Assembly (NCBI GenBank): GCA_018694835.1
Contig: JABHOG010000047.1
Location: forward strand, 34,149-98,148
Direction: 5' to 3'
From: Planctomycetota bacterium
Lineage (GTDB): Bacteria; Planctomycetota; UBA8108; UBA1146
DNA: 64,000 bases
A model generated the notes under the pieces. That model was not told where the DNA came from. It made no database searches and saw only the letters and a program-made list of their open reading frames with translations. Position 1 is the stretch's first letter. Every line of letters begins with the position of its first letter. This document shows positions 1 through 17,535 of the stretch, one piece after another. A program made the translations under genes and the position numbers.

Positions 1-3
1 CCG

Positions 4-606
4 GTGCGAGTGCAGACGGTCGCAGGAAGCGAGATCTATGGCGCACTCCTCCAACTGGATCCGACTTCTCTGAGACTGCGACAGTCCGATCGACAGGAAC
101 TCGCCATCCCTAACTCTCAGGTGGTGCAGATCCATTTTGAACTGGAGCGGATCATCCCCCTGACCCAGCGGCCACCGCTGAAAGTCGATGAAGGACTTCC
201 CCAATCGGACTGGTTCCCATGGACCTGGCGGAAAGATCTCAATGTACTGGGACAGCCGCTGCAGATCGGGGCACGACGATTTTCTTCAGGAATCGGCGTC
301 CATTCCCGCAGCCATCTGACCTTTTCGGTCGAAGAGGGAGATCGCACCCTGGTCGGAATCGCCGGGATCGATGCCAGCAGTCGTCCGCCGGATGAGGAGC
401 CGGGGATCGGCTGTGCCGACTTCTCCATCCTGGTCGATGGAGTGAAGAAGTTTGATGGTGGCACCCTGTCCTGGAAAGATCCTGGCGTCGATTTCCGGAT
501 CGACCTGAAGGGGGCGGAGAAGTTCACGCTGAGGGTCGACCTCGGTCCTGGACATCACATCCTCGACCGCGCCAACTGGGCGATGATCCGCATCATCCGC
601 GACTAG
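4..606 (+). CDS. C-terminal fragment of a secreted NPCBM/NEW2-like carbohydrate-binding-module protein (N-terminus lies upstream of the window)
   Basis: The open frame runs off the window start. Its tail (GIGVHSRSHLTF...GSILVDGVKKFDGG...DFRIDLKGAEKFTLRVDLGPGHHILDRANWAMIRI) follows the NPCBM domain consensus (GLGVHA...FQVxxDGVKxFDSG...LTGAKELKLVVTDAGDG..DHADWADA). Stop at 604-606. Confidence 0.5.
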   Translation: MRVQTVAGSEIYGALLQLDPTSLRLRQSDRQELAIPNSQVVQIHFELERIIPLTQRPPLKVDEGLPQSDWFPWTWRKDLNVLGQPLQIGARRFSSGIGVHSRSHLTFSVEEGDRTLVGIAGIDASSRPPDEEPGIGCADFSILVDGVKKFDGGTLSWKDPGVDFRIDLKGAEKFTLRVDLGPGHHILDRANWAMIRIIRD

Positions 607-668
607 CATTGCACCTACAATACCGTGCGTCTCGAATGGTGCTTCTCGTACCGTACGAGATAGCGACG

Positions 669-704
669 AAAAAGCCCCTGCTACGGACTCTCCGTAGCAG
701 GGGC
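669..704 (-). terminator. Rho-independent terminator for the minus-strand VWA gene
   Basis: Perfect 13-bp stem (gcccctgctacgg / ccgtagcaggggc) with a 5-nt loop, between convergent gene ends. The plus-strand A5 tract at 669-673 gives the U-tract for the minus-strand transcript. Confidence 0.5.
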
Positions 705-732
705 TTGTCGATGGTGAACCGTTAGAAAAGGG

Positions 733-2328
733 TCAGTCTCCGGGATTATCGGGATTCAACTTGTTATCCACCTTCATGTCGGTGTAGGTCCCGCCAGTCT
801 CCTCAGCCAGCCTTTTCAACCAACTGTTGGCCTGGGCCAGATCCCCCATCTGTTGCCCCCCCTGGGTGAAGGGGTGAAAACCAAAACAATGGATCTTGAT
901 CTTGCGGAACCGGTTCAACTCGAAAACCTTGTCGAGAATCGGACTGGTCGGGTCCTTCACCTTGCCATCCTTCGATGGAAGTCCATCGGAGAGGAAGAAT
1001 ATCGTGTTGGTTCGTGGATCCTGCATGAACGCCTCGACCAGTGCATCCAGGGTGTTGGTATTGCCGTTGTGCTTGATTCCATCGACCCACTTCAACGCCG
1101 ACTTCTTGTTGCCGGTGCTGGCGGGAGTCGCCTTCTTCTTGAACTTGCTGACGGTCGTGTCAAAGCGAACGCAATTGAAGGCGGCATCCTTGGACATCTT
1201 CTTCAGTACCTTGCGCAATTCTCGCTTGGCCATCTCCATCCGGGACCAGAACTTGGCGAGGCGAATCTGTTCCTGGGTCATCTGGCCACCACCGGAGGAA
1301 CCTCCTCCATCGGAGCCATCGCCTCGACCGAGGCCAGGAATATCATCCTTGTGGACATACCGCATCGAACCGGAGGTATCGATGACGAAGACGATGTTCT
1401 TTGATTCGACAGGAACGCCCCAGAATTCGGGATCATTTCCACGGCGCTTGCGCTTGACTCCGGTCTTTCCGTCGTGGGTCTCCTCCATCGGGTCAAAGGT
1501 GTCCTGACGTGGCTCCCACCAGGAGTGCCACTCCTCGATCAGATCGAAGTCCTGTCCGGTCAACTCCCACAGTGAATCTCGCACCTGGTGGTAGAGCACG
1601 TCCTTGCGTTTCTTGACCAGTTTCTCCAGTAGTTTGATCATCGGCTCGACGCCGATGGCACTCTGGCTCTTACGGAAACCTTCCACCGCGGCTCCCTGGA
1701 CAAAGGGGGATTTATCCTCGAGGAAGGAGCACAGCAGTTTCAAGGCGGCGTCATTGTCGATCCCTCGCAGCCGCTGCAATTGTTTCTTCAGTGCCTCTTG
1801 CTGCTGCTTCAACCGATCGGGAATTCCTGGATCAGCACCGGGGGGCAATCCGTCATTCTCGATATCCTGGAGTTGCTTGCCCAGTTTCATGATCTCGTCA
1901 TTGATCTTCCCGCGCTTGTTGGTGGGGAAGGAGAGAATGTCGGTCAGGTAGACGCGCTCGCGGAAATCGCTTTTGCTGCGCAATTTAGTGTATCGCTCGG
2001 AGATGAAATCGACACAACCATCCATGCGAGACAGTTCCTCACAGATGGTGCTGTAGACTGTTGGATTCCGTCCATCCTTGAAGCCCAGATCGTACAGCGT
2101 CTCGACCGCATCCTCGGTGCCATAGGCAGCGATCTGCCGGGCAATATCGATGGCATTATCGGCATTATCGCCCTGGACCGCTTTACGAAAACTCTTGGCC
2201 AGTTTCTTGATCTCTTTGGAATCGGGAGCACTGGTCGCATCCAGCACGGCGAAGGAAAAGATTCCGCACACCATTGTGATCCACAGAAGAGCCAGTGAAC
2301 CTCTGGTTGAACGATTTTGGTAGATCAT
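733..2328 (-). CDS. von Willebrand factor type A (VWA) domain protein with N-terminal TM helix, HEAT-like and coiled-coil region
   Basis: C-terminal VFVIDTSGSMRY (DxSxS MIDAS motif) and downstream VWA-like sequence. Start chosen at the ATG at 2328 (MIYQNRSTRGSLALLWITMVCGIFSFAVL, a TM/signal helix) preceded by GGAGGA. The longer track ORF to 2436 has no RBS. Confidence 0.7.
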   Translation of the reverse strand: MIYQNRSTRGSLALLWITMVCGIFSFAVLDATSAPDSKEIKKLAKSFRKAVQGDNADNAIDIARQIAAYGTEDAVETLYDLGFKDGRNPTVYSTICEELSRMDGCVDFISERYTKLRSKSDFRERVYLTDILSFPTNKRGKINDEIMKLGKQLQDIENDGLPPGADPGIPDRLKQQQEALKKQLQRLRGIDNDAALKLLCSFLEDKSPFVQGAAVEGFRKSQSAIGVEPMIKLLEKLVKKRKDVLYHQVRDSLWELTGQDFDLIEEWHSWWEPRQDTFDPMEETHDGKTGVKRKRRGNDPEFWGVPVESKNIVFVIDTSGSMRYVHKDDIPGLGRGDGSDGGGSSGGGQMTQEQIRLAKFWSRMEMAKRELRKVLKKMSKDAAFNCVRFDTTVSKFKKKATPASTGNKKSALKWVDGIKHNGNTNTLDALVEAFMQDPRTNTIFFLSDGLPSKDGKVKDPTSPILDKVFELNRFRKIKIHCFGFHPFTQGGQQMGDLAQANSWLKRLAEETGGTYTDMKVDNKLNPDNPGD

Positions 2329-2556
2329 GATTCCTCCATGGGGACCCTTGGCGGGGTGCTCTATTGACGAATGAGACTCGCGATCGGAACTGGATCGGAG
2401 TACGGGCCCAGGAAGCCACCTTCCGGGCACTCTCAAGGTATCATGCCTCCTTCTTCAGTTCCATCGCCTAGGATCTGGATGAATATGGGCTTATGGGTGA
2501 TGAATCGGCTCGAGTTGCTTATCTTGGTCGAACATCCACATGACCTGGAGGAACAG

Positions 2557-3321
2557 ATGTCCCAGCACCAAGACGACACCGATCGCCAGTATCATATCGG
2601 TCTCTCCCGGGGAGATGCCGCTGAAAAAATCTTGCTCGCCGGAGATCCCGAACGAGTACGACGAAGCGCCGCTCGACTCGATAGTATCGAGGGCGAATGG
2701 AGCTGTCGCGAATATCTGACCATCACCGGAGAATGGCGTGGTGAGCGGGTGACCCTGATGGCCACCGGCATCGGCGCCAGCAACATCGAGATCGCGATGG
2801 TAGAACTGGCCGCCATCGTCGACGACCCGGTACTGATCCGAGCAGGCTCCTGTGGCGGTCTCGACCCGAAGATTCAACTGGGCGACCTGGTGGTCAGTTG
2901 GGGAGCGGTTCGGATGGAGAATACCTCCACCACCTTCGTTCCCGAGGGTTACCCCAGCGTCTCTCATCCGGATGTGATCCAGGCATTACTGCAGCAAGCG
3001 CGCCAGAAGGAGTACCCGGTCCACCTCGGGATCACCGCCACCGCACCCGGTTTCTACGGCGCCCAGGGACGAAACGTGAATGGGTTTCCCCCACGCCACC
3101 CCGACGTGATCGAGGAGTTGGCCCGCATCGGTGTCGCCAACATGGAGATGGAGGCTTCGGCCCTCTTCACGCTGGCCTCGGTGAAGGGCTGGAGAGCGGG
3201 GTGCGTTTGCACCGTCTTTGGCCGTCGCCATCACGATGAGTTTGTCCCGGTCGCGGAAAAACCGGCACTGGAAGATCGCTGCGTCGAGGTGGCACTCGAC
3301 GCACTACTGAGCATCGACTGA
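2557..3321 (+). CDS. udp: Uridine phosphorylase / PNP-UDP family nucleoside phosphorylase
   Basis: Aligns by eye along its full length with E. coli Udp: MSQHQDDTDRQYHIGL vs MSKSDVFHLGL, ATGIGASNIEIAMVEL vs STGIGGPSTSIAVEEL, and MEMEASALFTLA vs YEMESATLLTM. ATG at 2557 follows GGAGGA. Upstream in-frame ATGs at 2479 and 2500 are alternative starts. Confidence 0.7.
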   Translation: MSQHQDDTDRQYHIGLSRGDAAEKILLAGDPERVRRSAARLDSIEGEWSCREYLTITGEWRGERVTLMATGIGASNIEIAMVELAAIVDDPVLIRAGSCGGLDPKIQLGDLVVSWGAVRMENTSTTFVPEGYPSVSHPDVIQALLQQARQKEYPVHLGITATAPGFYGAQGRNVNGFPPRHPDVIEELARIGVANMEMEASALFTLASVKGWRAGCVCTVFGRRHHDEFVPVAEKPALEDRCVEVALDALLSID

Positions 3322-3330
3322 GACGAGACA

Positions 3331-4221
3331 TTACCCGGGCTTGACCTGCGACGGATCGGGGTCCAGCGTAGAGATGGCGGCATCGACGATTCTCAACAAT
3401 CGTCCGCGCGATCTGCGCCCCGTCTCCATCACCTCTTCATGGCTCAGCGGCTGCCCCGACATCCCCGCCGCCAGGTTGGTCACCAGCGAAAACCCTTGCA
3501 CACGAAGACCACAATCCACCGCCACCATCGCCTCCTGGATGGTCGACATGCCGACCAGGTCTGCGCCGAGTTTGCGCAGCATCCGTACCTCCGCAGGGGT
3601 CTCGTAGGTGGGTCCAGGCAGACCTGCGTAATTTCCACGGGGGAAACCATCGGTCGCTCCAGCCTTGGAATCGTTGCGGTAGCACCGCTCGGTTCGATCG
3701 ATCCAGTGCTGGTCGAAGAGACCGGTCTGATTGCGAATCCTCGAAGCGGCCTCGATTCCCATCTTCGGAGTCACCCCCTGCAGGTTGATATGATCCTCGA
3801 TGGCGACCACTTGTCCGGGACTCCAGCCCTCACGGACGCCACCGGCGGCATTGGTCAGGATCAACCCTCGGGCACCAAGAGCTGCGAGCACGCGGATTCC
3901 CCGCACCACCTCTTCCACATCGTATCCCTCATACAGATGAACCCGACCACCGAGCAGAAGTATCGTCGATCCTCCGACCTCGCCGAGGATCCACTCACCC
4001 CCATGCCCGGCCACCGAGGGCGATGGCATCCCGGGAATGTCACCGACCGCGACGCGGCAATATTCGGTCCAGCCATCGGCGGGAAACTGGATCCCCGAAC
4101 CGAGCACGATACCGACATCGGGACCGACCTCGGACCAGTCCTGCAGACCATCGGGTGCCAGTTCGCACCACTGATCGCGAATCCACCGACAAGCCGCCTG
4201 GGCATCGAATCGTTCCGTCAC
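3331..4221 (-). CDS. Purine nucleoside phosphorylase (PNP family 2, PunA/DeoD-II type)
   Basis: VHLYEGY motif, GMSTIQEA and the overall PNP layout. GTG start at 4221 overlaps the upstream gene stop (GTGA), so it is translationally coupled to the nucleotidase-transporter gene. It converges on udp with a 9-bp gap. Confidence 0.8.
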   Translation of the reverse strand: MTERFDAQAACRWIRDQWCELAPDGLQDWSEVGPDVGIVLGSGIQFPADGWTEYCRVAVGDIPGMPSPSVAGHGGEWILGEVGGSTILLLGGRVHLYEGYDVEEVVRGIRVLAALGARGLILTNAAGGVREGWSPGQVVAIEDHINLQGVTPKMGIEAASRIRNQTGLFDQHWIDRTERCYRNDSKAGATDGFPRGNYAGLPGPTYETPAEVRMLRKLGADLVGMSTIQEAMVAVDCGLRVQGFSLVTNLAAGMSGQPLSHEEVMETGRRSRGRLLRIVDAAISTLDPDPSQVKPG

Positions 4222-7052
4222 GGCATGACGATTCCGGCAACGCAACCGGTCATCAGCGCTGCGACGGTACCACCGACCAATGCTCTCAATCCCAAAGAGG
4301 AGAGGCGCGGTCGCAAGGAAGGCTCGAGCGATGAGATTCCACCGATCTGGATCGCCACGCTGGCAAAGTTAGCGAATCCACAAAGGGCATAGGTGGTGAT
4401 GGCTCGAGAGCGCTCACTGAGGGTGTCGACCCCGGAGAGTTCGATAAAGGCCACGAACTCGTTGAGCACCGTCTTCATTCCGATCAGCGAAGCGACCGCT
4501 GGCACATCCTTGAAGTCGACCCCCAGCAACCAGGCAAAGGGATAGAAGATCCACCCGAAGACATCTTGTAGGTTGAAGTAGGGTGATTCCGCCAGCACGG
4601 CGTGATCTCCCTGGCTCACCATATTTACCAAGGAGAGTGCCCAGTAGGAGATGTGCTGGGTCAACCAGGCGAGTGATGCATTGGCCAGTGCCACGATGGC
4701 CACGAATGCGATCAACATCGCGATGACATTGAGTGCCAGGGTCAACCCTTCACTGGTTCCTCGACAGGCAGCATCGAGCAGATTGGAGTCGGAGCGGTGG
4801 ATTTCCAGTTTGGCCGCTGTGGGGTCACCTAGATCCTTCTTCTCGGGGACCATCAACTTGGCCGCCACCAAGGCCGCAGGCGCCGACATGAAACTGGCCG
4901 CCAGCAGGTGACCGGCGTCGATTCCGAGACTGACATAGGCGGCAAAAACACTCCCCGCCACGGTCGCCATGCCTCCAGTCATCAGTGCCATCACCTCGGA
5001 GTTAGTCATCGTTTTCAGATAAGGGCGGATCACCAGTGGTGCTTCAGTTTGCCCGGCGAATATGTTGGCTGCGGCAGCGAGAGATTCAGGACCGCTGGTC
5101 TTCATCGTCATTTGCATCAAACGAGCGATCAGCCACACGACGACCTGCAGCAAACCGATGTGATAAAAGATCGCCATCAATGCCGAGACAAAGATGATGG
5201 TTCCGAGCAAGACGATCCACAGCTGGAATCCAACACCGGTCGCCGACGCCAAGGTACCGAAGACCATGGCGGTCCCGACCTGGGAGAAGTCGAGGATCCC
5301 CTGGAAGATCTCCTTGGCACCAGAGGTGATGGAAGTGCCCCAATCAGTTCGCAGGATCACCAACGCCAGCAGCAGTTGCAGCCCCACCCCCCAGTACACC
5401 GTACGCCAGCGAACTTCAGCACGACGGGTCGAAATCGCCCAGCAGAGTGCGACCAGAACCAGCAGGCCCAGCAGGCTGCGGGCACGATCGAGCCAGTGAT
5501 CCCCCTCTCCCCCATCGGACGCTGATGAGATGTAAACCTCAGCTTGGATGGAAGCATAGATCCGATCGGCGGAGTCCGCCTGCTCCAGCGCCCGCTCGGT
5601 CGCTTCCAGCACCGACAATCCACCATCCTCCTTGGGAGCGGCAGCCAGCAGATCCCAACCATCCCCACCGCTGGCAAGGTAATCGTTGGTGGCGATGCGA
5701 AATTGCTGTTGATCGGTAATGGGAGCGCCCTGGAGAAGGATCTGGTCGACCTCGACCGGACCTCCGTCCGCCTCTGCCACCTGCACCCGAATTCCGTGGA
5801 AGTCGACCCCTCTTCCCTCGGTGGTGAGGGACTGAACGACCAGTTGCTTCAACTGCTTGCCGGTCAAGGTCACCACCGTCACGCGATTGCCAAAGGGCGA
5901 GATCTCGAAGAGATCGCGGTACAGCACTTCTCCAGAAGGCAAGTCGTCACGGATTCCACCATGATTGTGGAAAGAAGCAGAGACACCTGCCGCTTCCGCC
6001 ATCGAATCACAGATCCAGCGACCCAGTGGCGAGGAGACCGCTCCACTCTCCTTGTGCCCCCCACTGTGTAAAGCCACCGGGGATTCTCCCACCTTGCGAT
6101 TCATCTTCTCGCCGACCGTGGCATTCACCGCAGCGAGCAGAGCTCCCAATTTCTGATCGGTCGCAACGGAGAGGGCTTCGACAGCCACCACCGACGTGGA
6201 TACGGTGAAGGTCTGCCTGTGGCCCACGGACTCGCTCTTGCCCTTGCGTGTGAATTCGACGCGCCCGAGATGGCGAGTCTTGGCTCCCACCTGGGCCACC
6301 ACCGTGCCATGGACCGGTTCTATCCAGGGTGGATCAACCAGGGTATGGGAGTGCCCGCCGACGATGAGGTCGAGACCCTCGACTTCTCCGGCGAGCGCTC
6401 TTTCCAGTTTCACTCCGCTATGAGAGAGAACCACCATCAGATCGGCACCCTGTTGCCGGAGGCGATCTCTCGCTTTTCTCACCGCGTCAGCCAGCGGGGC
6501 TACCTGTAACTTTTTGCCCGCTACAGGAGCGATGATGTTGGGCGCGTCCGGTGTCAAGATTCCAATCAATCCGACGCGGAATCCACCGCGCTCGATGATG
6601 TGATCACGCAGTACCACCTGTTGTAGGCGTCCCGAAGACTCGGTCACATTCGATGCGATCACCGGAATGGTCGTGGCATTGATCAGATTCAGCAGGTTGT
6701 CTATTCCATAATCGAAATCGTGGTTGCCCAGGGTCATGGCATCGAACTGGAGGCACTCCATCGCTCGGATCATCTGAAGGCCGCCGTCGCTGGCGCCTTC
6801 TGGAGTTCCCTGGAACCAGTCGCCAGCATCGAGCAGCAACACATTCTCGTTACCCACCTCGTCGCGTACCGACGAGACCAATTGGCCCATCCCGGCCATT
6901 CCGCCACTGAGATTCTCACCACTTTTCCGAGGGAGTAACTGTCCATGCATGTCGTTGACGTGCAGTACCACCAGATGATCATCTGCCTGGACGAGAACCC
7001 CACACCAGAGACTGATCAGCACCAGCCAGCCTTGAATTGATCGCAAGATCAT
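4218..7052 (-). CDS. Fusion protein: periplasmic 5'-nucleotidase/UDP-sugar hydrolase (UshA-like) fused to a concentrative nucleoside transporter (NupC/CNT family)
   Basis: The N-terminus has a signal peptide (MILRSIQGWLVLISLWCGVLVQA after AGGTGG). Calcineurin-like phosphoesterase motifs HVNDMHG, GNHDFD and GGHSH follow, then the 5'-nucleotidase C-domain IATNDYLASGGDGW. The C-terminal ~400 aa are polytopic and align with E. coli NupC: RWRTVYWGVGLQLLLALVIL...FGTLAS vs [20 protein letters not shown]...FGSMND, GWIFYPFAWLLGV...NEFVAF vs GYIFYPIAWVMGV...NEFVAM, and an SAPAAL motif. It is one 945-codon frame with no internal stop. Confidence 0.85.
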   Translation of the reverse strand: MILRSIQGWLVLISLWCGVLVQADDHLVVLHVNDMHGQLLPRKSGENLSGGMAGMGQLVSSVRDEVGNENVLLLDAGDWFQGTPEGASDGGLQMIRAMECLQFDAMTLGNHDFDYGIDNLLNLINATTIPVIASNVTESSGRLQQVVLRDHIIERGGFRVGLIGILTPDAPNIIAPVAGKKLQVAPLADAVRKARDRLRQQGADLMVVLSHSGVKLERALAGEVEGLDLIVGGHSHTLVDPPWIEPVHGTVVAQVGAKTRHLGRVEFTRKGKSESVGHRQTFTVSTSVVAVEALSVATDQKLGALLAAVNATVGEKMNRKVGESPVALHSGGHKESGAVSSPLGRWICDSMAEAAGVSASFHNHGGIRDDLPSGEVLYRDLFEISPFGNRVTVVTLTGKQLKQLVVQSLTTEGRGVDFHGIRVQVAEADGGPVEVDQILLQGAPITDQQQFRIATNDYLASGGDGWDLLAAAPKEDGGLSVLEATERALEQADSADRIYASIQAEVYISSASDGGEGDHWLDRARSLLGLLVLVALCWAISTRRAEVRWRTVYWGVGLQLLLALVILRTDWGTSITSGAKEIFQGILDFSQVGTAMVFGTLASATGVGFQLWIVLLGTIIFVSALMAIFYHIGLLQVVVWLIARLMQMTMKTSGPESLAAAANIFAGQTEAPLVIRPYLKTMTNSEVMALMTGGMATVAGSVFAAYVSLGIDAGHLLAASFMSAPAALVAAKLMVPEKKDLGDPTAAKLEIHRSDSNLLDAACRGTSEGLTLALNVIAMLIAFVAIVALANASLAWLTQHISYWALSLVNMVSQGDHAVLAESPYFNLQDVFGWIFYPFAWLLGVDFKDVPAVASLIGMKTVLNEFVAFIELSGVDTLSERSRAITTYALCGFANFASVAIQIGGISSLEPSLRPRLSSLGLRALVGGTVAALMTGCVAGIVMP

Positions 7053-7175
7053 GCCACCTCTATTTCCACCTGGAGAATTGCTGGAGAGGATAGCGGAACA
7101 ATCCACGTCTGGACAGCGGGAGCCCTTGCAACCGCCCCCCCATTTCCTTCATGATCTGAGCAAAGGAGAGTCATC

Positions 7176-8579
7176 ATGGACCCAGCGGAACTTCCCGAGC
7201 GAATCTTCAGAACCTATGACATCCGTGGCATCGTTGGAGAAGACCTGACCGAGGAGATCGTCGAACAGATTGGACTCGGGCTGGGCCAGTTACTCTCCTC
7301 CGAGGGGAGCCGCTCTGTCGCCGTCGGTCACGATATCCGCGATTCCAGTGCGCCCTTCGCCGCCCGAGTCCGAGATGGCCTGCTGAAAGCAGGACTCGAT
7401 GTCATCGAGGTGGGAGAGGTTCCGACTCCCTTGCTCTACTGGGCAGTCCAGCACCTGGGTGCAGATGGCGGAGTGATGATCACCGGCAGCCACAATCCAG
7501 TCGAATACAACGGGCTGAAAATCACCCGCGGTGTGATGCCGATCTGGGGGGATGAACTGCAGACCCTTCGCAACATCGCCAACGATGCTCGTGCGGTCGA
7601 GACACCAGGCCAGGCGACTTCAGCCGAAGTCATCCAGCCCTACATCGCCAACCGGACCGAGCGCTTCCAGTTCCCCGACGGATTCAAGGTCGCCATCGAT
7701 TGCGGCAATGGCACGGCAGGGCCTGTCGCCATTCCACTCTTTGAAGCACTCGGGATCGAGGTGGACGCCCTTTACCCCGAGCCCGATGGAACCTTTCCCA
7801 ATCACCTTCCCGACCCGGAAGTTCCTCGCTACATGAAGAATCTATGTGACAAGGTTGCGGCGGGAGATTTCCAGTGTGGCTTCGGCTTCGACGGTGACTC
7901 CGATCGAGTCGGAGTGATCGATGAGAAGGGCAGGAAGAGATCCGCTGATCATTTACTGGTCGCCTTCGCCCGCCACCTGCTCGCCCAGGTCCCAGGGGGC
8001 AAGATCATCTATGATGTCAAATGCTCCGACTACTTGCCTGATCTGATCAAAAAGGCCGGAGGAATACCGATACTCAGCAAGACGGGTCACTCCATCATCA
8101 AGGAAAAGATGAAGGAGACGGGAGCGATTCTCGCGGGCGAACTGTCGGGGCACATCTGTGTGAAGCATGGCGGAGACGGCTTCGACGACGCCTTCTTTGC
8201 CGCTTTACTGACACTCGAGATCATCGCTTCCCAGGGTGGTCAATGCTCCGACCTGTTCGACGGTATTCCCGAGATGAAGGCGACCCCGGAGGTCAAAATT
8301 CCGGTCTCGGAGGCACACAAGTTCCAGGTGGTCTCCGCGCTGGTGGAGCAATTTCGGAAGGATCCCGGCGGTGGCACCCTGATCGACCTCGATGGAGTCC
8401 GGCTCTCCTTCGATGATGGATGGATGCTGATCCGTGCTTCCAATACGACGGCGAATCTGACGGTGCGCGTCGAAGGAGTCGACAACGCCGCTCTGCAACG
8501 AATCGGGTCGATCGTCCGCCAGGCGCTCGAGTCACACCCGGTCAATCTCGACCAGTTGACCGAGGCACTCGAATCCTGA
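7176..8579 (+). CDS. Phosphomannomutase/phosphoglucomutase (alpha-D-phosphohexomutase family)
   Basis: Active-site TGSHNP motif and the N-terminal FRTYDIRG signature. RBS aaaggagag 6 nt before the ATG. Confidence 0.85.
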   Translation: MDPAELPERIFRTYDIRGIVGEDLTEEIVEQIGLGLGQLLSSEGSRSVAVGHDIRDSSAPFAARVRDGLLKAGLDVIEVGEVPTPLLYWAVQHLGADGGVMITGSHNPVEYNGLKITRGVMPIWGDELQTLRNIANDARAVETPGQATSAEVIQPYIANRTERFQFPDGFKVAIDCGNGTAGPVAIPLFEALGIEVDALYPEPDGTFPNHLPDPEVPRYMKNLCDKVAAGDFQCGFGFDGDSDRVGVIDEKGRKRSADHLLVAFARHLLAQVPGGKIIYDVKCSDYLPDLIKKAGGIPILSKTGHSIIKEKMKETGAILAGELSGHICVKHGGDGFDDAFFAALLTLEIIASQGGQCSDLFDGIPEMKATPEVKIPVSEAHKFQVVSALVEQFRKDPGGGTLIDLDGVRLSFDDGWMLIRASNTTANLTVRVEGVDNAALQRIGSIVRQALESHPVNLDQLTEALES

Positions 8580-8612
8580 CCACGCTCCAAGGAACAGCTG
8601 CCCTGCACCAGT

Positions 8613-9560
8613 TCAGCGCTGACCCGAAGATTTATTCTTTCGAGCCACTCGCCACTTCTGGAAGCACTCTCGCTGATCGAAGAAGAGCCAATCCCCTTGC
8701 CGGGTACGTGCCCGGGCAGCGGATGCTTCTCGTTCGACTTGTTGGCCACAGATCGGGCAATGAACGAAAGCACTCTCCTCCAGTTTCTCGCATCCAGCGG
8801 GAACATCGAACAACGAAGCAGGTACCGATCGTCGATCCCATTGGGTGACCTTGAAGGTGAGGGGATGCGACAAGGTCGCAGTCACTACATGAATGACCCC
8901 CTCCAGAGGAAGCCCTTCGATCTTCTCCAGTGCGCCCTGGACCTCGGCTCCGAAGGCTCCACTGGCGCGATGAAACTTGGCCAGAGGAAAGGGCATCTCG
9001 AGGTCCGCGACCAGCAAGTCAGTGATCAATCGATCATTTTCGTAGATCCGAACCGATCGTACCGGAAGACCCAATCGCTGTTCGGTGGTTTCTGACTGTT
9101 CGACGCGAATCTCCCGGATCAATTCGCCACTCTCCGACAGTCGCAGGTGGCTCGCTTTCAATAACTGCTCTCGTTCTGCCGTGGAAAGATCTCGACTACG
9201 CAGTTCCAGTTGCTTCTCCTGGATCCACCGGTCCTTCTGGATCCGCCCGAGATCGGAGCTTTCACGATAGACGGAACGGTCCGCGGAAATTTCTCTCAGT
9301 AGCGGTTGATCCCCATCTAGACGCAAGATGTTAAACAGGCCACGCTGTCGGTCTTCCAGCAGCACACGATCGGAAGCCAGCACCATCTGCTGTATCTCTG
9401 TTTCCTGGTCTGGACGACCGGGTCGTCCGGAGATTTCCTGCAAGATGATCAGCGCCTCCAGGCGAGACGTGGTGCTCTTCGCTTCCTGCGAAACCGGATC
9501 CACTGTTACAGGATCCTGCGACAAGATCGACATCCATAGCGAAAGGGCTAGCAGATTCAT
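8613..9560 (-). CDS. Secreted hypothetical protein with C-terminal YHS/TRASH-like zinc-ribbon (CPICG...FFDQRECFQKW)
   Basis: Hydrophobic N-terminus. The C-terminal Cys pair plus FxxxxCxxxW resembles YHS metal-binding domains. ATG overlaps the upstream stop (ATGA). Last gene of a three-gene operon. Confidence 0.55.
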   Translation of the reverse strand: MNLLALSLWMSILSQDPVTVDPVSQEAKSTTSRLEALIILQEISGRPGRPDQETEIQQMVLASDRVLLEDRQRGLFNILRLDGDQPLLREISADRSVYRESSDLGRIQKDRWIQEKQLELRSRDLSTAEREQLLKASHLRLSESGELIREIRVEQSETTEQRLGLPVRSVRIYENDRLITDLLVADLEMPFPLAKFHRASGAFGAEVQGALEKIEGLPLEGVIHVVTATLSHPLTFKVTQWDRRSVPASLFDVPAGCEKLEESAFVHCPICGQQVEREASAARARTRQGDWLFFDQRECFQKWRVARKNKSSGQR

Positions 9561-10690
9561 GTGACATTCTCCTCGGCCAGTGTTTTCCAGGACAGCGCCG
9601 GAAACGCATCGTTGCCAGGTGACAAATCGACACCATGACCTGATCTCTGTTCATCCAGGGTAACGGATTCGCCATCGAATTCGATCCCACCGACAAAAGG
9701 ATGCTCCCGGATGAACAGCGGTGTATCGAGATCGATCCAGCGCACCCCACCGAGCCCTCGGGCCAGGTGTGCGGAGAAGGACATCGAGAGCAGTGACTCG
9801 ACCATCCCGCCCATCATCAGCGAAAGTCCTGCGGCGGTGGCAATCTGATGAATTCGGATCGCTTCCAGTACGCCGCACTTCTGCGTCTTGATATTGATGA
9901 CATTGGCCAATCGGTGCTGAACGATACGCATCGCATCGGCAGCGCTCCTGCACGATTCATCGGCGCAGATCGCCACCTGACCGAGGGCGGTCAATCGAGC
10001 CATTCCCGTCTCGTCCTCCTGTGGCACCGGCTGCTCCAGCATGTGGATCGGGATTCCATCGGCGAGAGATTTCTCGATCAGTTGCTGCGCCTCGGCCGCC
10101 TCGTAGCCACCGTTAGCATCGAGTACCAGTCCGCAGTCGGGTGCCGCGCGCGAGATCATCTCGAGCCGCTGCAGATCGTGATCCAAGCCGTCGCGCCCCA
10201 CCTTGATCTTGAGTGTCTTGAATCCAGCGGCGCTCGCTTCTCTGGCAGATCGAGACGCGTGGTCGAGATCTCCCGCGACGATGGTCAGATCAGTGACGAG
10301 GGAAGCGTTGGCTGAGCCGACAAAGCGATGGAGCGAACACTGCTGCTGACGAGTAAATCCATCGAGCGCCGCCATCTCGACGGCGCAGAGGGCGCTCGAG
10401 GAACCAGGAGCCGCCTCGATGGTACTCTGCTGGATCCGATGAGAGAGGAGAGGGTCCAGTCCGATCAGGGCAGGTGCGGCTCTCGCCAGCGCCTCCAGCG
10501 CCGCCGTCCTGGTCTGGCCATCGTAGGCGGGGAAGGGAGCCGCCTCGCCAAGCCCCACCGTCCCATCCGACAATTCCATTCGCACCAATGTCAGATCGAC
10601 TCGACTCGATTCGCCACCTGAGATGACGAATGGCTCCTTCAGTTCAAGATCAAGGGGAGCAGCCTCGATCTTGACGATGCGCCTGCTCAT
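9557..10690 (-). CDS. Enolase-superfamily (mandelate racemase/muconate lactonizing enzyme) protein, likely L-Ala-D/L-Glu dipeptide epimerase
   Basis: KIKVG (KxK catalytic motif), LDANGG, and Asp/Glu metal ligands in the expected order. ATGA overlap with the upstream aminopeptidase gene. Confidence 0.75.
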   Translation of the reverse strand: MSRRIVKIEAAPLDLELKEPFVISGGESSRVDLTLVRMELSDGTVGLGEAAPFPAYDGQTRTAALEALARAAPALIGLDPLLSHRIQQSTIEAAPGSSSALCAVEMAALDGFTRQQQCSLHRFVGSANASLVTDLTIVAGDLDHASRSAREASAAGFKTLKIKVGRDGLDHDLQRLEMISRAAPDCGLVLDANGGYEAAEAQQLIEKSLADGIPIHMLEQPVPQEDETGMARLTALGQVAICADESCRSAADAMRIVQHRLANVINIKTQKCGVLEAIRIHQIATAAGLSLMMGGMVESLLSMSFSAHLARGLGGVRWIDLDTPLFIREHPFVGGIEFDGESVTLDEQRSGHGVDLSPGNDAFPALSWKTLAEENVT

Positions 10691-11928
10691 TGCGATACCC
10701 AGGCCCCGTTCTCCAGCAAAGGCACTTCGTCACCGGAAGTGGTGACCGCGGTCACATTCACCTCCTCGTTGCTGATCATCATGTCGGTATGAGCGGTCGA
10801 AGAATTCCAACCGATCGCCTCCAACTGCTCAGGAGTCATCTCCACTCCACCTTCGAGACAGGTCTTGTAGGCATTGCCTACCGCAACATGACATGCAGCA
10901 TTCTCATCGAGCAGAATTTCGCGGAATACATGGCCGCTCTGAAATACCGGTGAATCGGTTCCCACCAGAGCCACTTCGCCCAGTCGCCTGGCCCCGGGGT
11001 CGCTGTCGATGTAGGCGCGGAAGGTCTCACCACCATTGTCTGCGCTGAAATCGCTCAGAACTCCACCTTTGAACTCGAGATTGAGTCCCTCCACCAGAGT
11101 CCCGTTGACCAGGAAAGGTCTCGTCACCTGTGCCGTGCCCTCGGTCATGCGGTAATCGGGAGTGGTGAAGACCTCTTCAGTGGGAAGATTGGGAATGAAT
11201 TCCTGACCTCTTTGACTGATGGCACCACCGCCTTCGAAGCGAGCGGCTGGCGAGAGTCCAACGGTCAGATCGGTCCCCGGCCCGTTGAACCGCAGCCGTT
11301 CAATCTTCAGTTCATTGAGTGCTTTTCCACGACTCTTGAGCTGTCGATTGTGCTCTTCCCACGCGCCAAGACAATCTTCGCGATCAGCCCGTACGATGGT
11401 CAGGAGTTGTTTCCAGAGTTCGTCCCTGGCAGCCACTCCATCGAGATGATCGAAGATCGATTCCGCCCAGCCGATGGTCGCCGCAGAAGCGACACACCAT
11501 TGCACTGCAGATCTTCCAATTCCATCATCGAAAAAGCGTGTTGCTGCCTTGTGCCCGGCGATACGACAGCGATTGGTTCGATCCGCATCGAGACCAGAAA
11601 GAGCTTCTGGATCGGAAGTACCGACCAGGCGCAACATCGCTCCCTGCTCTTCCACCGCCTCATCAAAGCGGACCGGTAAACTACGGGGAATATGGTCGAG
11701 GAACTCTTCCTGTTGCGAATGCAAGATGCGGGAACGTTGGATACGATCGTCTCCCAGGTCAACATGAACAAATCGTGCCCCCGCCTGGTAGGCCGCCTCC
11801 ACCACCTTGATGGCGAAATCTCTCGATTCAGCGTCCACACCCAGGTAAAGCGATTGCCCCGGCTGAATGTTGCAGCCTTTTCGGATGATCAACTCGGCGT
11901 AACGTTCCAGGGCCACTTCATGGTTCAT
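10687..11928 (-). CDS. M29 family aminopeptidase (aminopeptidase T/AmpS-like)
   Basis: MNHEVALERYAELIIRKGCNIQPGQSLYLG and a length of about 414 aa fit thermophilic-metalloprotease M29. Start set at the ATG at 11928 after GGAGG. The track ORF extends further, but that extension runs through a tRNA gene and was rejected. Confidence 0.8.
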   Translation of the reverse strand: MNHEVALERYAELIIRKGCNIQPGQSLYLGVDAESRDFAIKVVEAAYQAGARFVHVDLGDDRIQRSRILHSQQEEFLDHIPRSLPVRFDEAVEEQGAMLRLVGTSDPEALSGLDADRTNRCRIAGHKAATRFFDDGIGRSAVQWCVASAATIGWAESIFDHLDGVAARDELWKQLLTIVRADREDCLGAWEEHNRQLKSRGKALNELKIERLRFNGPGTDLTVGLSPAARFEGGGAISQRGQEFIPNLPTEEVFTTPDYRMTEGTAQVTRPFLVNGTLVEGLNLEFKGGVLSDFSADNGGETFRAYIDSDPGARRLGEVALVGTDSPVFQSGHVFREILLDENAACHVAVGNAYKTCLEGGVEMTPEQLEAIGWNSSTAHTDMMISNEEVNVTAVTTSGDEVPLLENGAWVSQ

Positions 11929-12053
11929 TGGGAGACCTCCGCTTTCAGGATTCAGAAAAGGTAACCGATGGTCTGCCCCAGCGGGAGGCTGCAGAAGACA
12001 ACGGACCAGGATGGGAAGCAGCCGTGCAGCATTGCTGCACGGCCGAAGATTTC

Positions 12054-12130
12054 TGGTCGGGGTGAGAGGATTTGAACCTCCGGCCTCCACGTCCCGAACG
12101 TGGCGCTCTACCAAACTGAGCCACACCCCG
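12054..12130 (-). tRNA. tRNA-Pro (anticodon CGG), 3'-CCA encoded
   Basis: Read on the minus strand: 7-bp acceptor CGGGGTG/CACCCCG, D-arm GCTCAGTTTGGTAGAGC, anticodon stem CCACG/CGTGG with loop TTCGGGA, T-arm GGTTCAAATCC. Discriminator A followed by CCA. Confidence 0.85.
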
Positions 12131-12339
12131 ATTTGTTCATCACTGTTGGTCTCGCAACATCGGTGCCCTCGGCGGCCGATGATCGGACTGGTCAGGAAGG
12201 ATACAGGGTGGTCACGAAAGGGTCAATCTGACCGTGAACTATGGCGAAGCGGAGAAAATCGCTCCCGCTCGCAGTCCCGATCGCAGGCCCACGCGATGTC
12301 CCCGGAACCTCGTCCATCGTCGAGAAAAACCGCTCGAGA

Positions 12340-13644
12340 TCAGGGATTACAGCCGTAGCCATTGGCCTGGTCCGGATCGAGCCCCGCTTCTGGAAATGGT
12401 GTCATCGGCATCGGACCACTTCGGAAGAGGTACGTGACGACGTAGATCGGATCGGCCAGGTCGATCAAACCGTCACCATTGACCTCGGCCGCTTCCAGGC
12501 ATGCCGGTGCGTCTCCGCCAGAAAAGAGGTAATAGGACAGGTACATCGCATCCCCGATGTCGAGCTGACTATCGCCATTGACCACTCCACGGATAAATCC
12601 GTAGGTAAAGGCTCCCGGCAAGGTGGCTTCGCCCAGCGAATTGGCGACACGAACATCGACCGACCCCACTCCATTGATCGATGACGGCAATAGGCCCGTC
12701 ACCGTGTTGTCGTCGACCACGACCAGGCCCAGAAGAGCCACGCCGTCGATGGTGACCTCGGTATCGGACGCCGCGAGAAATCCAGATCCTGTCACCTGTA
12801 CATCGACTCCACCCAGGTAGTGCCCGACTGTCGGAGTGACCCCTTCGGCGGTGACCGGGATGATCGAGGTGTTACAGATGGCGCTGACCACTTCAGGGTT
12901 ACTGACAGGATCGGGAAAGACCACACCCAGCAGAGAGTAAGTGTAGGAACCCGGTGCCAGATCCGCATCGACATACTCGGTTACTCCCGGATCCAGCATG
13001 GCGATCAGATCGCCATCTCGGTGGACCAGTACATAGTCAAAAGGAGTGCATTCGCTCCAGCTGAGGATCGAATCGGAGACTCCACCCTGGCACACCAGGT
13101 CGAGACAGAAGTCCGGTGGCGGAATGATCTGGATGTTAGCGGGCGTCTGATCCGGGGTCAGGCTAGCCCCTCCCGATACGATCACCACATCGACTGCAGG
13201 AGATCCAAGGGTGCCACAGAAAGCGACCTCGGCATCGATGGGCAAGCCCCCGGCAGTGGCCACTCCGGTCAACAGGTAATCGATATCGAGCAGTCCATAA
13301 CCGGTTCCCGGGTCGAGCGAGGCGCTGCCGACGAAGGAGATCACCACTCCAACCGTCAATCCTTCGGGATAGATATTCATCTCGTTGAAGTCTGGAGCGC
13401 CGCCACCATTGATGATGGCGGTGGTGGGACCGTCTTGAGCGGCGGTCAATTCGAGGTTGTCAGTATCGTGACACACCCCCATCGACCACCCCTGTACCAC
13501 GACACTGGAGTCGAGCAGCAGATGCGATTGAATCGCCTCGCCGGTGACACCCGACCCTCCGGTCAAGGAAACTGCGGTCTCTTGCGCACAGATCGATGTG
13601 GCCATGGCCAAACAAAGCAGTGTCACCAAATAATTGAATTTCAT
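12340..13644 (-). CDS. Secreted protein with IPT/TIG-like Ig domain and C-terminal type-I dockerin-like tandem Ca-binding repeats
   Basis: Signal peptide MKFNYLVTLLCLAMATSICA. Two C-terminal repeats, VNGDSQLDIGDAMYLSYYLF and VNGDGLIDLADPIYVVTYLF, fit dockerin (DxNxDGxID...LL.YLL). The same module ends both FG-GAP proteins at 50-53 kb. Confidence 0.7.
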   Translation of the reverse strand: MKFNYLVTLLCLAMATSICAQETAVSLTGGSGVTGEAIQSHLLLDSSVVVQGWSMGVCHDTDNLELTAAQDGPTTAIINGGGAPDFNEMNIYPEGLTVGVVISFVGSASLDPGTGYGLLDIDYLLTGVATAGGLPIDAEVAFCGTLGSPAVDVVIVSGGASLTPDQTPANIQIIPPPDFCLDLVCQGGVSDSILSWSECTPFDYVLVHRDGDLIAMLDPGVTEYVDADLAPGSYTYSLLGVVFPDPVSNPEVVSAICNTSIIPVTAEGVTPTVGHYLGGVDVQVTGSGFLAASDTEVTIDGVALLGLVVVDDNTVTGLLPSSINGVGSVDVRVANSLGEATLPGAFTYGFIRGVVNGDSQLDIGDAMYLSYYLFSGGDAPACLEAAEVNGDGLIDLADPIYVVTYLFRSGPMPMTPFPEAGLDPDQANGYGCNP

Positions 13645-13829
13645 CTCATCACCCTCCCAAGGCCGATCGATAGGTTCGGCCGATCCACTGGAACTCTCAC
13701 CCAGGCGGGGTCTTCTTCATCCATCAACATTACTCAGTGCCCGGGCCAAGTCAATCCTGTGGGCAGCGCATCGTCCTCAAGGGGTCCAGAACACAAGATA
13801 GTCAGATTTCTGCAAGGGTCCGAGGCCGG

Positions 13830-14678
13830 TCAACTCCAGTGATGGAAGCCTTGCCCGGTTTTCTTGCCCAGATGCCCCTCGGCGACCAGTTGTCGCAGCA
13901 GTTCTGGAGGGCGGAATTGCTCGCCAATTTCCTGGTGTAGATATTCAGCGATGGCGAGGCGCACATCGAGTCCCACCAGATCCGTCAACCGCAACGGTCC
14001 CATCGGATGGCGGTACCCCAATTCCATCGCCTTGTCGATCTCCTCGGCAGAAGCGACCCCTGCTTCCAGCATACGGATCGCTTCGAGCCCGATCACCAAC
14101 CCCAACCGGCTAGTCGCGAATCCGGGGGAGTCTTGCACCACGATCGGTTCCTTCCCCAGGGCCACCGCCAGTGACACGGCCGCTTCGACCGTCGACTCAC
14201 TACTGGCCGCACCACGAACCACCTCGACCAGTGCCATGATCGGCACTGGATTGAAAAAGTGCATTCCGACGAAGCGCTGTGGATGCTGGAGACTGGAAGC
14301 CAAATCGGTGATCGGCAGGGAGGATGTGTTGGTGGCGAGGATGGCATCGGAGCTCACCACCTGCTCTACCCGAGCAAAGATAGTCGCCTTCAAATCGAGC
14401 AGTTCCGGCACCGCTTCGATCACGAAATCACTCTCCTGACACGCTTCTTCGATGTCGGTCGAGGTGGTCAAGCATCGGCGAAACTGATCGCGCGCCGAGG
14501 CGGGAGTCTTGCCCTTCTCGATCCCCTTCTCGACACTCGCCTCGATCCGCTCACTGGCGTCAGCCAGCGCCTCGGCAGAGACATCGCAGAGTCTTGTGGA
14601 GATGCCGTGAATCGAGGTGACCTGGGCGATCCCCTGCCCCATCGTTCCAGCTCCGATCACGGTGATCTGGCGTACCAT
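13830..14678 (-). CDS. hbd: 3-hydroxyacyl-CoA (3-hydroxybutyryl-CoA) dehydrogenase
   Basis: N-terminal Rossmann motif ITVIGAGTMGQGIA and HFFNPVPIM, typical of the Hbd/FadB C-domain family. ATG at 14678. The 41-codon upstream extension in the track has no support. Confidence 0.85.
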   Translation of the reverse strand: MVRQITVIGAGTMGQGIAQVTSIHGISTRLCDVSAEALADASERIEASVEKGIEKGKTPASARDQFRRCLTTSTDIEEACQESDFVIEAVPELLDLKATIFARVEQVVSSDAILATNTSSLPITDLASSLQHPQRFVGMHFFNPVPIMALVEVVRGAASSESTVEAAVSLAVALGKEPIVVQDSPGFATSRLGLVIGLEAIRMLEAGVASAEEIDKAMELGYRHPMGPLRLTDLVGLDVRLAIAEYLHQEIGEQFRPPELLRQLVAEGHLGKKTGQGFHHWS

Positions 14679-14842
14679 CGACAACCCTTTCCATTTGAAT
14701 ATCTTCGGCCACACTACTGGCCATCGAGAGGCTGAGCCTTGAGACGTGCGGTTGCCTCGAACCACCAGAGATGCGACCCTCCCGACCAGAGCAGGATACA
14801 CGACAGTTCCTCAACACTGGAGCAGATCCGGACGGAGCCCCG

Positions 14843-15661
14843 ATGACCAGAAATGACCAGGAACCCCTTTCTCCCCACGACTCGCTGGTCACGGTGGAGC
14901 AGCAGGGGCCGGTTCGATACCTGACCCTCAGTCAGCCCCCCGCCAACTGCTATTCTCACGAGATGATGAAGCAGTTGGATCAGGCGGTGATCGACGCACG
15001 ATTTTCCCCGGAAACACATGTCATCGTGTTGCGAGGTGCAGGAGACCGATTCTTCTGTGCCGGCGCTGACATCGGGATGCTGGAACAGGTGACACCCGAG
15101 TGGAAATACCACTTCTGTCTCCACGCCAACGAAACGCTTTTACGGCTCGAGCAAACGCCCAAGCTGGTCATCGCTCAGATCCAAGGCCACTGTGTCGGGG
15201 GAGGGCTCGAAGTGGCACTCGCCTGTGATCTGCGCATCGGTTGCGCAGGATCGGGCAAGGTCGGGGTTCCCGAGGTCCAGTTAGGCGTCCTGCCAGGAAC
15301 CGGAGGGACCCAGCGTCTGGCCCGAACCATCGGGAAATCGAAAGCGATGCAGTGGTGTATCGATGGCCGGATGATGGAGATCGACGACGCCGTGGAAGCC
15401 GGTCTCATCGACCGGATCCTCCCGGCAGAGGATTTCCAGTCTGCGATCCATCAGATCGCCTGCAGTTACTGTCCACCTCAACGGGCAAGCCTCGCCGTAG
15501 GACTGATCAAGAGGAGCATCCAGAGTGGCCTCGAGATGGGTCTCCATGAGGGGCTCGCACTGGAAAGAGAACTGCAACAGCGTCTGTTCGCCAGCGAAGA
15601 CGCCAGCGAAGGGATCGCCGCCCACCAGCAGAAGCGTCCTGCAGAATTCAAGGGTCGTTAA
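14843..15661 (+). CDS. Enoyl-CoA hydratase/isomerase (crotonase) family protein
   Basis: Crotonase fold markers: LRGAGDRFFCAGADI, VIAQIQGHCVGGGLEVALACDLRI, PEVQLGVLPGTGGTQRL. Confidence 0.8.
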   Translation: MTRNDQEPLSPHDSLVTVEQQGPVRYLTLSQPPANCYSHEMMKQLDQAVIDARFSPETHVIVLRGAGDRFFCAGADIGMLEQVTPEWKYHFCLHANETLLRLEQTPKLVIAQIQGHCVGGGLEVALACDLRIGCAGSGKVGVPEVQLGVLPGTGGTQRLARTIGKSKAMQWCIDGRMMEIDDAVEAGLIDRILPAEDFQSAIHQIACSYCPPQRASLAVGLIKRSIQSGLEMGLHEGLALERELQQRLFASEDASEGIAAHQQKRPAEFKGR

Positions 15662-15676
15662 AGAGGGAGAAAATCA

Positions 15677-16480: not shown

Positions 16481-16491
16481 GAAGAAGGATC

Positions 16492-17532: not shown

Positions 17533-17535
17533 TCG

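Follow-up and report, generated by a model that had tools for sequence, protein, structure and literature searches.

In this study, we describe a gene of a Planctomycetota bacterium, whose source is described as marine, that joins a 5'-nucleotidase with a putative signal peptide to a complete nucleoside transporter of the concentrative nucleoside transporter (CNT/NupC) family within one continuous reading frame. The gene lies in a window of 64,000 nucleotides, by which we mean the whole stretch of DNA that was analysed (GenBank assembly GCA_018694835.1, contig JABHOG010000047.1, positions 34,149 to 98,148 of the forward strand); positions below are counted from the first letter of this window. 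The original prediction, made from the DNA letters alone, had read the locus as an in-frame fusion of a secreted UshA-type 5'-nucleotidase with a complete CNT/NupC transporter, located within a cluster of genes for nucleoside catabolism, and this core reading holds. Beyond the two-part architecture itself, the site residues of the nucleotidase and of the transporter are intact, the topology is compatible, and both the fusion and its gene neighbourhood are conserved, the fusion throughout a clade. We consider it likely that the exported nucleotidase is tethered to the transporter, so that nucleotides are dephosphorylated in the periplasm at the transporter itself, imported as nucleosides and phosphorolysed in the cytoplasm.

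On the reverse strand, the frame is open over positions 4218-7106 when counted from the listed GTG. From the ATG at 7052 it encodes 944 amino acids plus a stop, i.e., the single 945-codon frame that had been claimed, and the homologues share this start methionine in an alignment of 22 fusions. Neither a stop codon nor a frameshift interrupts the junction between the two halves, no in-frame ATG, GTG or TTG able to start a separate transporter was found near it, and the GC content at third codon positions is alike on both sides (0.67 and 0.71). The five Pfam domains named in the original prediction all score above their gathering cut-offs, in the order Metallophos (residues 28-237), 5_nucleotid_C (337-470), Nucleos_tra2_N (528-601), Gate (613-709) and Nucleos_tra2_C (715-940). 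The four nucleotidase motifs it had listed (HVNDMHG, GNHDFD, GGHSH and TNDYLASGGDGW) are likewise all found in the protein.

The N-terminal half matches PF00149 (Metallophos) with 39.2 bits against a cut-off of 21.5 and PF02872 (5_nucleotid_C) with 107.7 bits against 23.6, in the canonical order of the family. Its sequence matches in the PDB, led by the Thermus 5'-nucleotidase 2z1a (2e-41) and including E. coli UshA and human CD73, cover the full length of this half. The dimetal and catalytic motifs NDMHG, AGDWFQG, GNHDFD, LSHSG and GGHSH are present and align with those of 2z1a. In the 22 aligned fusions, which share 40-93% identity, residues D34, H36, D78, N110, H111, D114, H211, H234 and H236 are invariant, as are the substrate-site residues R368 (GGIR), F387 and N389 (SPFGN) and D464 (NDYLASGGDGW); position 458, a tyrosine in the window protein, is aromatic in all 22. 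The arginine, aromatic and aspartate residues align with the GGIR, PFGN and GGDG motifs of 2z1a. From motif alignment and the known structures we take R368, F387, N389, Y458 and D464 to be equivalent to the corresponding residues of CD73 and UshA, and the NDY motif presumably matches the CD73 substrate site. Since all these positions are invariant or conservatively replaced, catalysis appears to be under purifying selection; the nucleotidase half, with its catalytic and substrate-binding residues intact, would be catalytically competent. We also modeled the protein with AlphaFold2 (AF2) from the 22-sequence alignment, giving a mean predicted local distance difference test (pLDDT) of 83.7 and a predicted template-modelling score (pTM) of 0.53. 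In the nucleotidase half the pLDDT is mostly 80-95, and Foldseek returned template-modelling scores (TM-scores) of 0.79 to 2z1a and of 0.74-0.80 to 3ivd, closed UshA (1ho5) and most closed CD73 entries.

The C-terminal half is equally complete. The Pfam scores are 79.4 bits for Nucleos_tra2_N, 59.3 for Gate and 239.9 for Nucleos_tra2_C, and the alignment covers residues 11-421 of the 424 residues of vcCNT of Vibrio cholerae (E = 5e-81); bovine and human CNT3 are aligned as well. The hairpin motifs GQTEAPL (HP1) and NEFVA (HP2) and the motif CGFANFxS of the seventh transmembrane helix (TM7; CGFANFAS in the window) match vcCNT and CNT3, and Q668, T669, E670, E865, F893, N895 and S898 are invariant in the 22 fusions. 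We take the residues of these three motifs to be nucleoside contacts, as in the structures of vcCNT. In the AF2 model, this half reaches a TM-score of 0.87 to vcCNT (3tij); to bovine CNT3 (8tz1), which is longer, the score is 0.68. Family alignment, Pfam and predicted fold thus all bear out the earlier claim that the C-terminal half is a full CNT of the NupC family; a C-terminal half outside the CNT family, which had been named beforehand as a result that would refute the reading, was not obtained. The asparagine of the sodium site is retained and its serine is replaced by threonine; transport may be coupled to sodium ions or to protons.

The topology of the protein appears compatible with an extracytoplasmic nucleotidase. 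Residues 2-23 form the sole hydrophobic stretch before residue 524, with the layout of a signal peptide: MILRS, a hydrophobic core, and then VQA and DD on either side of the putative cleavage site. In most of the 22 homologues, position -1 is likewise occupied by a small residue, and one or more acidic residues come after the site. No further hydrophobic segment was found by hydropathy between residues 30 and 524. The original prediction had placed a linker with a predicted transmembrane (TM) helix at around residues 530-570, which needs correction: the hydrophobic segment 524-542 aligns to residues 11-30 of vcCNT and lies largely within Nucleos_tra2_N, so that it is the TM1 of the transporter, and the tether is found before it, at about residues 505-522. 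An extra TM helix in the linker is thereby ruled out. TM1 is followed by RRAEVRWR, which resembles a cytoplasmic loop according to the positive-inside rule. The tether proper measures some 13-18 residues, with a pLDDT below 50 at residues 511-518 between two confidently modeled halves. From A484 in a conserved helix to R523, the arginine that opens TM1, 21 of the 22 fusions count 30-56 residues; in the deeper-branching fusions just 5-6 residues or so remain beyond the last strand (..YVQVGTxxER). In the lineage of the window the linker is rich in Ser, Asp and Gly, as it is in the nucleotidase-less relatives discussed below.

Both NupC and VcCNT have their termini in the periplasm (Nout-Cout), and NupC is still active with a signal sequence and MBP on its N-terminus (PMC4659628). 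Since CNTs have this topology, a secreted N-terminal passenger would fit without an added helix. The hydropathy and positive-inside pattern of the fusion are compatible with the same Nout-Cout arrangement, which would place the nucleotidase in the periplasm, as predicted. The engineered proteins of that study (PMC4659628), like the fusion, carry a secreted soluble passenger on the periplasmic N-terminus of a CNT; the NupC version is reported to insert correctly and to transport, while activity data were not shown for the VcCNT version. In contrast to the fusion, they are artificial, the passenger has no role in the pathway, and MBP-NupC is less active than a Strep-tagged control.

The fused frame is far from unique to this contig. 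The identical 944-residue protein is found on 5 contigs in NCBI (MBT6968274.1, MBT7104861.1), JGI and ENA, labelled as a hypothetical protein of a Planctomycetes bacterium. A variant with 93% identity is present on 21 contigs, which derive from samples in ENA, Logan and NCBI, and a 938-residue variant on 19 contigs. The window protein differs from this commoner form by a six-residue insertion, SESVGH (residues 273-278, window positions ~6219-6236, reverse strand), which sits in a surface loop and of which residues 275-278 are modeled with low confidence. When 5.8 billion clustered proteins were searched, the five-domain architecture was recovered in about 24 clusters, at 99-37% identity. Those clusters with a source label all come from metagenome-assembled genomes of Planctomycetota, and the next matches are ordinary unfused nucleotidases of 520 residues. 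Scanned exhaustively with HMMER, 1.84 billion representatives of 50%-identity clusters contained only four full-length fusions (P0013, P0020, P0021 and P0240), of which P0240 was confirmed in its architecture by Pfam; everything else in that scan was an unfused CNT or an unfused nucleotidase. Among species-representative genomes there are 11 loci with the whole fused gene and 4 cut by a contig end, and tblastn places both halves side by side on one strand in every locus; judged by isolate names, many of these loci are marine. A sequencing or assembly error at the junction, named beforehand as one of two results that would overturn the reading, was not found, the fused frame recurring in many independent assemblies down to 37% and up to 99% identity.

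In the public databases these proteins are named 'hypothetical protein', 'CNT family transporter', '5'-nucleotidase C-terminal domain-containing protein' or 'nucleoside transporter C-terminal domain-containing protein'. No paper with a nucleotidase-CNT fusion in its title or abstract was found in a literature search whose coverage is incomplete, most subscription-journal papers lying outside it. The original prediction had remarked that in these families the nucleotidase and the transporter are normally separate proteins; the fusion is rare, but the proteins themselves have been deposited many times under generic names. What is new is the architecture, which unites an extracytoplasmic hydrolase in one protein with the secondary transporter for the hydrolase's product; the component families and the pathway are known.

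Features of the nucleotidase-CNT fusion locus (window positions; residue numbers refer to the 944-residue protein)
Feature	Position	Strand	Evidence
5'-nucleotidase::CNT fusion gene, 944 aa	4218..7052	-	stop codon at 4218-4220; continuous open reading frame with five Pfam domains
Signal-peptide-like N-terminus, residues 1-23, MILRSIQGWLVLISLWCGVLVQA, then DD	6984..7052	-	hydropathy; pattern in homologues
Two-domain 5'-nucleotidase, residues 24-510	5523..6983	-	Pfam; PDB sequence matches; Foldseek; invariant residues
Flexible tether, residues ~505-522, YISSASDGGEGDHWLDRA	5487..5540	-	AF2 pLDDT; spacing in fusions
CNT/NupC-family concentrative nucleoside transporter (TC 2.A.41), residues 523-944	4221..5486	-	Pfam; vcCNT alignment; TM-score
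Purine nucleoside phosphorylase (PNP; trimeric PunA/PNPH type)	3331..4221	-	NCBIfam score; GTGA overlap
Uridine-phosphorylase-like NP-I family phosphorylase	2557..3321	+	PNP_UDP_1; PDB matches; convergent with PNP, 9-bp gap
PMM/PGM-family phosphosugar mutase, divergent	7176..8579	+	synteny; PDB matches
Conserved block, TTGCAAGGGCTCCCGCTGTCC...TCCGCTATCCTCTC	7084..7131	-	in the 123-bp divergent intergenic region between mutase and fusion

The genes next to the fusion would supply the cytoplasmic end of the pathway. The TGA stop codon of the fusion (4218-4220) overlaps the GTG that opens the purine nucleoside phosphorylase (PNP) gene (4221-4219) as GTGA, and the protein passes the equivalog cut-off of NF006054 (PRK08202) in NCBIfam with 261.7 bits against 218. 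The predicted translational coupling of the fusion to a PNP therefore stands, both in the overlap and in the identity of the enzyme. The same 4-nt overlap is present in the gene calls of several relatives, and PNP lies directly downstream of the CNT gene in every one of the loci L001-L019 that extends far enough. For the gene that converges on PNP, the convergence is as described, while its identity as a uridine phosphorylase is a best match below the curated cut-off: uridine phosphorylases fill the first 18 places among its PDB matches (1e-36 to 1e-30, the best PNP following at 2e-25), but against TIGR01718, its best NCBIfam match, it scores 171.9 bits where 280.3 are required. It is syntenic in L001-L004, L006-L015, L017 and L018. 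Wherever the contigs reach, L001-L004 and L006-L018 keep one layout, consisting of a divergent phosphosugar mutase of the PMM/PGM family, the fusion, PNP overlapping or closely following it, the convergent uridine-phosphorylase-like gene and a VWA/HEAT protein. Where the fusion has diverged to about 40% identity (L004, L005), mutase, fusion and PNP are still found side by side.

The same neighbourhood also houses relatives that lack the nucleotidase. In P0122-P0129 and L017:7755-9266 (forward strand), a CNT with 67-71% identity to the transporter half of the fusion is preceded by a signal peptide and 30-50 acidic or Ser-rich residues. We built a bootstrapped neighbour-joining tree of the CNT halves, in which all fusions except P0022-P0024 fall into a clade with 97% bootstrap support; the nucleotidase-less forms nest within this clade, whose inner nodes are weak (27-59%). 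On the simplest reading, which is provisional, the fusion would be ancestral to the clade and the nucleotidase would have been deleted later in frame, once or twice. Ordinary CNTs have about 404 residues and no signal peptide; consequently, the signal peptide kept in the nucleotidase-less forms would be a trace of a fused ancestor. As P0022-P0024 do not belong to the main clade, they may stem from a second, independent fusion. In these three proteins, TM1 of the CNT is immediately followed by about 100 inserted residues that include several hydrophobic stretches. A different insertion, of about 190 residues, separates the nucleotidase from TM1 in P0021 (alignment columns ~700-1050 for P0021-P0024).

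We propose the following mechanism. The N-terminal half would be exported through its signal peptide and be held to TM1 by the tether. A CNT forms a homotrimer and has its N- and C-termini on the extracytoplasmic side, so that three nucleotidases would be arranged over the periplasmic face of one transporter. Nucleotides that reach the periplasm, e.g., from degraded extracellular RNA or DNA, would be dephosphorylated beside the transporter, the nucleoside would be taken in by ion-coupled transport, and PNP and the uridine-phosphorylase-like enzyme would split it in the cytoplasm into the base and (deoxy)ribose-1-phosphate. Within this scheme, we infer the substrate range, the formation of a trimer and any kinetic benefit of the fusion. 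The covalent link could serve local capture of the product, obligatory 1:1 co-expression, retention at the membrane, or a mix of these, and the product may be handed over to the transporter directly. In the strongest form of the proposal the trimer would be a hydrolysis-coupled uptake machine: the C-terminal substrate domain would dock over the outward-facing site, the nucleoside would bypass the bulk periplasm, and the rotation of the nucleotidase between open and closed states may be coordinated with the elevator cycle of the transporter. We regard this extension as improbable.

Several observations weigh against the proposed tethered pathway, or limit how far it can be taken. Signal-peptide cleavage and topology are deduced from hydropathy and homology. 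The pTM of 0.53 means that the relative orientation of the two halves, and with it an active site that faces the vestibule of the transporter, is not predicted by the model. The nucleotidase half scores 168 bits against the UshA equivalog NF007109, where the cut-off is 600, which counts against any assignment of substrate specificity, and the transporter narrowly misses the nupC subfamily TIGR00804 (395.3 bits in two stretches, cut-off 442). With both curated thresholds missed, the assignment made here is one of family membership, not of orthology or substrate specificity. The apparent deletion of the nucleotidase domain in close relatives indicates that the fusion would be dispensable in some lineages. 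Finally, a short tether by itself is no guarantee of channelling, as is known from enzyme proximity effects.

The alternative that survives best is that the fusion serves co-expression and membrane anchoring only. It would then fix a 1:1 stoichiometry and prevent loss of the enzyme from a large or leaky periplasm; the nucleosides released would mix with the bulk periplasm ahead of their uptake, with no kinetic channelling. This is a serious possibility, although not the one we favour. Anchoring of the C-terminus to membrane or wall is common in the nucleotidase family where no transporter is involved: CD73 is C-terminally anchored by glycosylphosphatidylinositol (GPI), and NCBIfam models of LPXTG-anchored Nt5e proteins match the fusion. 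The inter-domain orientation left free in the AF2 model and the lineages that retain the transporter and the rest of the locus without the nucleotidase domain point the same way. Yet any TM helix could provide an anchor, and in these proteins that part is invariably played by the product's transporter; moreover, the tether is short and its length is constrained in nearly all fusions, as the spacing between helix and TM1 shows.

A second alternative, which we hold to be rather unlikely, concerns the substrate. The nucleotidase might mainly cleave NAD or NMN like NadN, UDP-sugars, 2',3'-cyclic or 3'-nucleotides, or ATP and ADP, and would still feed the resulting nucleoside to the transporter. 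The fusion meets no equivalog cut-off, and the models for UshA, NadN, CpdB-like and multifunctional nucleotidases all match at 1e-25 to 1e-49; in addition, NadN (3ztv) is among the PDB matches. Against this stand the neighbouring genes, which encode general purine and pyrimidine nucleoside phosphorylases rather than enzymes of NAD salvage, and the best structural and sequence matches, which are bona fide 5'-nucleotidases. It is very unlikely that the fusion is cleaved in the linker after synthesis, which would separate the transporter from a nucleotidase now soluble in the periplasm. The model predicts a disordered linker, and its Ser/Asp/Gly-rich composition was noted above, but no recognisable processing motif occurs in it, signal peptidase I is generally unable to cut on the N-terminal side of a Nout-Cin helix, and the very short linkers of the deeper-branching fusions leave little room for a protease site. 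An assembly artefact, a frameshift or a recent, pseudogene-like read-through from one gene into its neighbour is practically out of the question: nothing was found in its favour, fused frames occur in about 24 clusters with identities as low as 37% that come from different studies and assemblers, the replicate contigs of the 944- and 938-residue forms agree, both halves are under purifying selection and no alternative transporter start exists near the junction.

The tethered pathway has an unfused counterpart in V. cholerae, where secreted nucleases, the periplasmic UshA and CpdB and then NupC act in succession (PMC4714964). This route, and that of E. coli, shares with the fusion the enzyme family, the transporter family, the order of the steps and the cytoplasmic phosphorylases that follow. 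In these organisms, however, the nucleotidase is free, soluble and encoded elsewhere, whereas here it is joined to the N-terminus of the transporter with the phosphorylases alongside. In mammals, CD73 and the transporters CNT2 and CNT3 are functionally coupled at the cell surface. Both partners are homologous to the halves of the fusion, CD73 and CNT3 being among the best PDB matches of the respective halves, and CD73 is likewise tethered to the membrane at its C-terminus, with the substrate-binding C-terminal domain near the membrane and the N-terminal domain free to rotate. It is nevertheless a GPI-anchored dimer and a separate gene product, whereas in the fusion the transporter is the anchor and a trimer is the expected oligomer. 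The LPXTG-anchored Nt5e/Snt proteins of Gram-positive bacteria (NF040549, NF047875) belong to the same enzyme family and have a C-terminal surface anchor as well, but they are attached by sortase to the cell wall instead of to a transporter, and their described role is the production of adenosine for immune evasion. The C-terminal tether of the fusion mirrors both the GPI and the LPXTG anchors, which suggests that domain rotation tolerates attachment at this end. In Haemophilus influenzae, the nucleotidase NadN works with the nicotinamide-riboside transporter PnuC. Similar to the fusion, NadN is a periplasmic hydrolase of the UshA family that makes a riboside for a dedicated inner-membrane transporter, and its structures 3ztv and 3zu0 are among the matches of the nucleotidase half; here the two proteins are separate, PnuC is not a CNT and the substrate is NAD.

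In humans, CD73 and the CNTs count among drug targets and drug carriers, UshA and NupC are textbook proteins of bacterial salvage, and the coupling between these families has hitherto been treated as functional only. A natural covalent fusion is a 'Rosetta stone', arguing that physical proximity benefits both steps. If true, channelling within it would be a natural case of enzyme-transporter channelling outside the membrane and would embody the 'hydrolysis-uptake coupling' that has been inferred for the ecto-enzymes of marine bacteria; the fusion amounts to a new kind of biology only if true channelling is shown. The single polypeptide, with natural domain-loss relatives as controls, provides a system to test whether tethering improves the capture of scarce substrates. 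The fusion also points to pelagic Planctomycetota being specialised in harvesting dissolved nucleotides, from which they would draw carbon, nitrogen and phosphorus. In annotation, the proteins are now named as hypothetical or after one half only.

The most persistent neighbour is the mutase, which adjoins the fusion in every locus with upstream sequence, L004 and L005 with fusion identities of 38-43% among them. Its best PDB match is the PMM/PGM of P. aeruginosa (4.5e-107), presumably the protein known as AlgC, and it stays below all NCBIfam cut-offs. A phosphopentomutase of the phosphohexomutase superfamily is known in Thermococcus (PMC11641776). The mutase of the window might act on the ribose-1-phosphate released by the phosphorylases, an attractive but unsupported conjecture. 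Its annotation as a phosphopentomutase was set aside despite the synteny, as it is far closer to the P. aeruginosa enzyme than to 9ix8, the structure bearing that name (6e-38).

In the intergenic region that separates mutase and fusion, the block at 7084-7131 is kept across loci whose nucleotidase halves are only about 64-71% identical, while the flanking intergenic sequence diverges. This block is a possible promoter or operator candidate. It occurs once in the window and was rejected as a repeated regulatory motif. No sigma-70-like promoter was found in this intergenic region, counts of sigma-70 promoters and intrinsic terminators were at or below shuffle expectation, and no riboswitch or other known RNA was matched by Rfam in the locus (best E ~0.9).

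Further observations concern related loci and CNT fusions of other kinds. Four genes from the fusion in L004, given as a locus of 45% fusion identity, the gene at 1545-3617 (reverse strand) encodes a 690-residue protein of the secreted nuclease family Endonuclease_1, which fits the scavenging of extracellular nucleic acids; no gene of this type is present among the open reading frames scanned in window positions 1-18306. L018 (QNYK01000100.1), labelled 'Bacillota bacterium MAG 7', contains a CNT fragment with 96% identity next to the same PNP, uridine-phosphorylase-like and VWA genes, and is probably mis-binned Planctomycetota DNA. In L019 (8010-10124, forward strand), a Planctomycetota CNT of about 51% identity is extended at its C-terminus by some 170 residues that form a TPR-repeat domain, and a PNP gene comes next; the C-terminus of CNTs being periplasmic, this protein would be another extracytoplasmic fusion to the family. 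Among the cluster representatives, the gene model of P0272 (745 residues) combines a CNT with a C-terminal cytidine-deaminase domain, and that of P0294 (763 residues) has an N-terminal BNR/YCF48-like propeller before the CNT.

Elsewhere in the window, positions 13830-18306 encode a 3-hydroxyacyl-CoA dehydrogenase, three enoyl-CoA hydratase/isomerase paralogues and a protein of the zinc alcohol-dehydrogenase family, which appear to form a beta-oxidation-like set unrelated to the nucleoside locus. The M29 aminopeptidase at 10687-12126 (reverse strand) is listed from a GTG that lies 71 codons ahead of the domain; since its relatives align only from about residue 66, translation probably starts at an internal methionine (MNHEVALERY).

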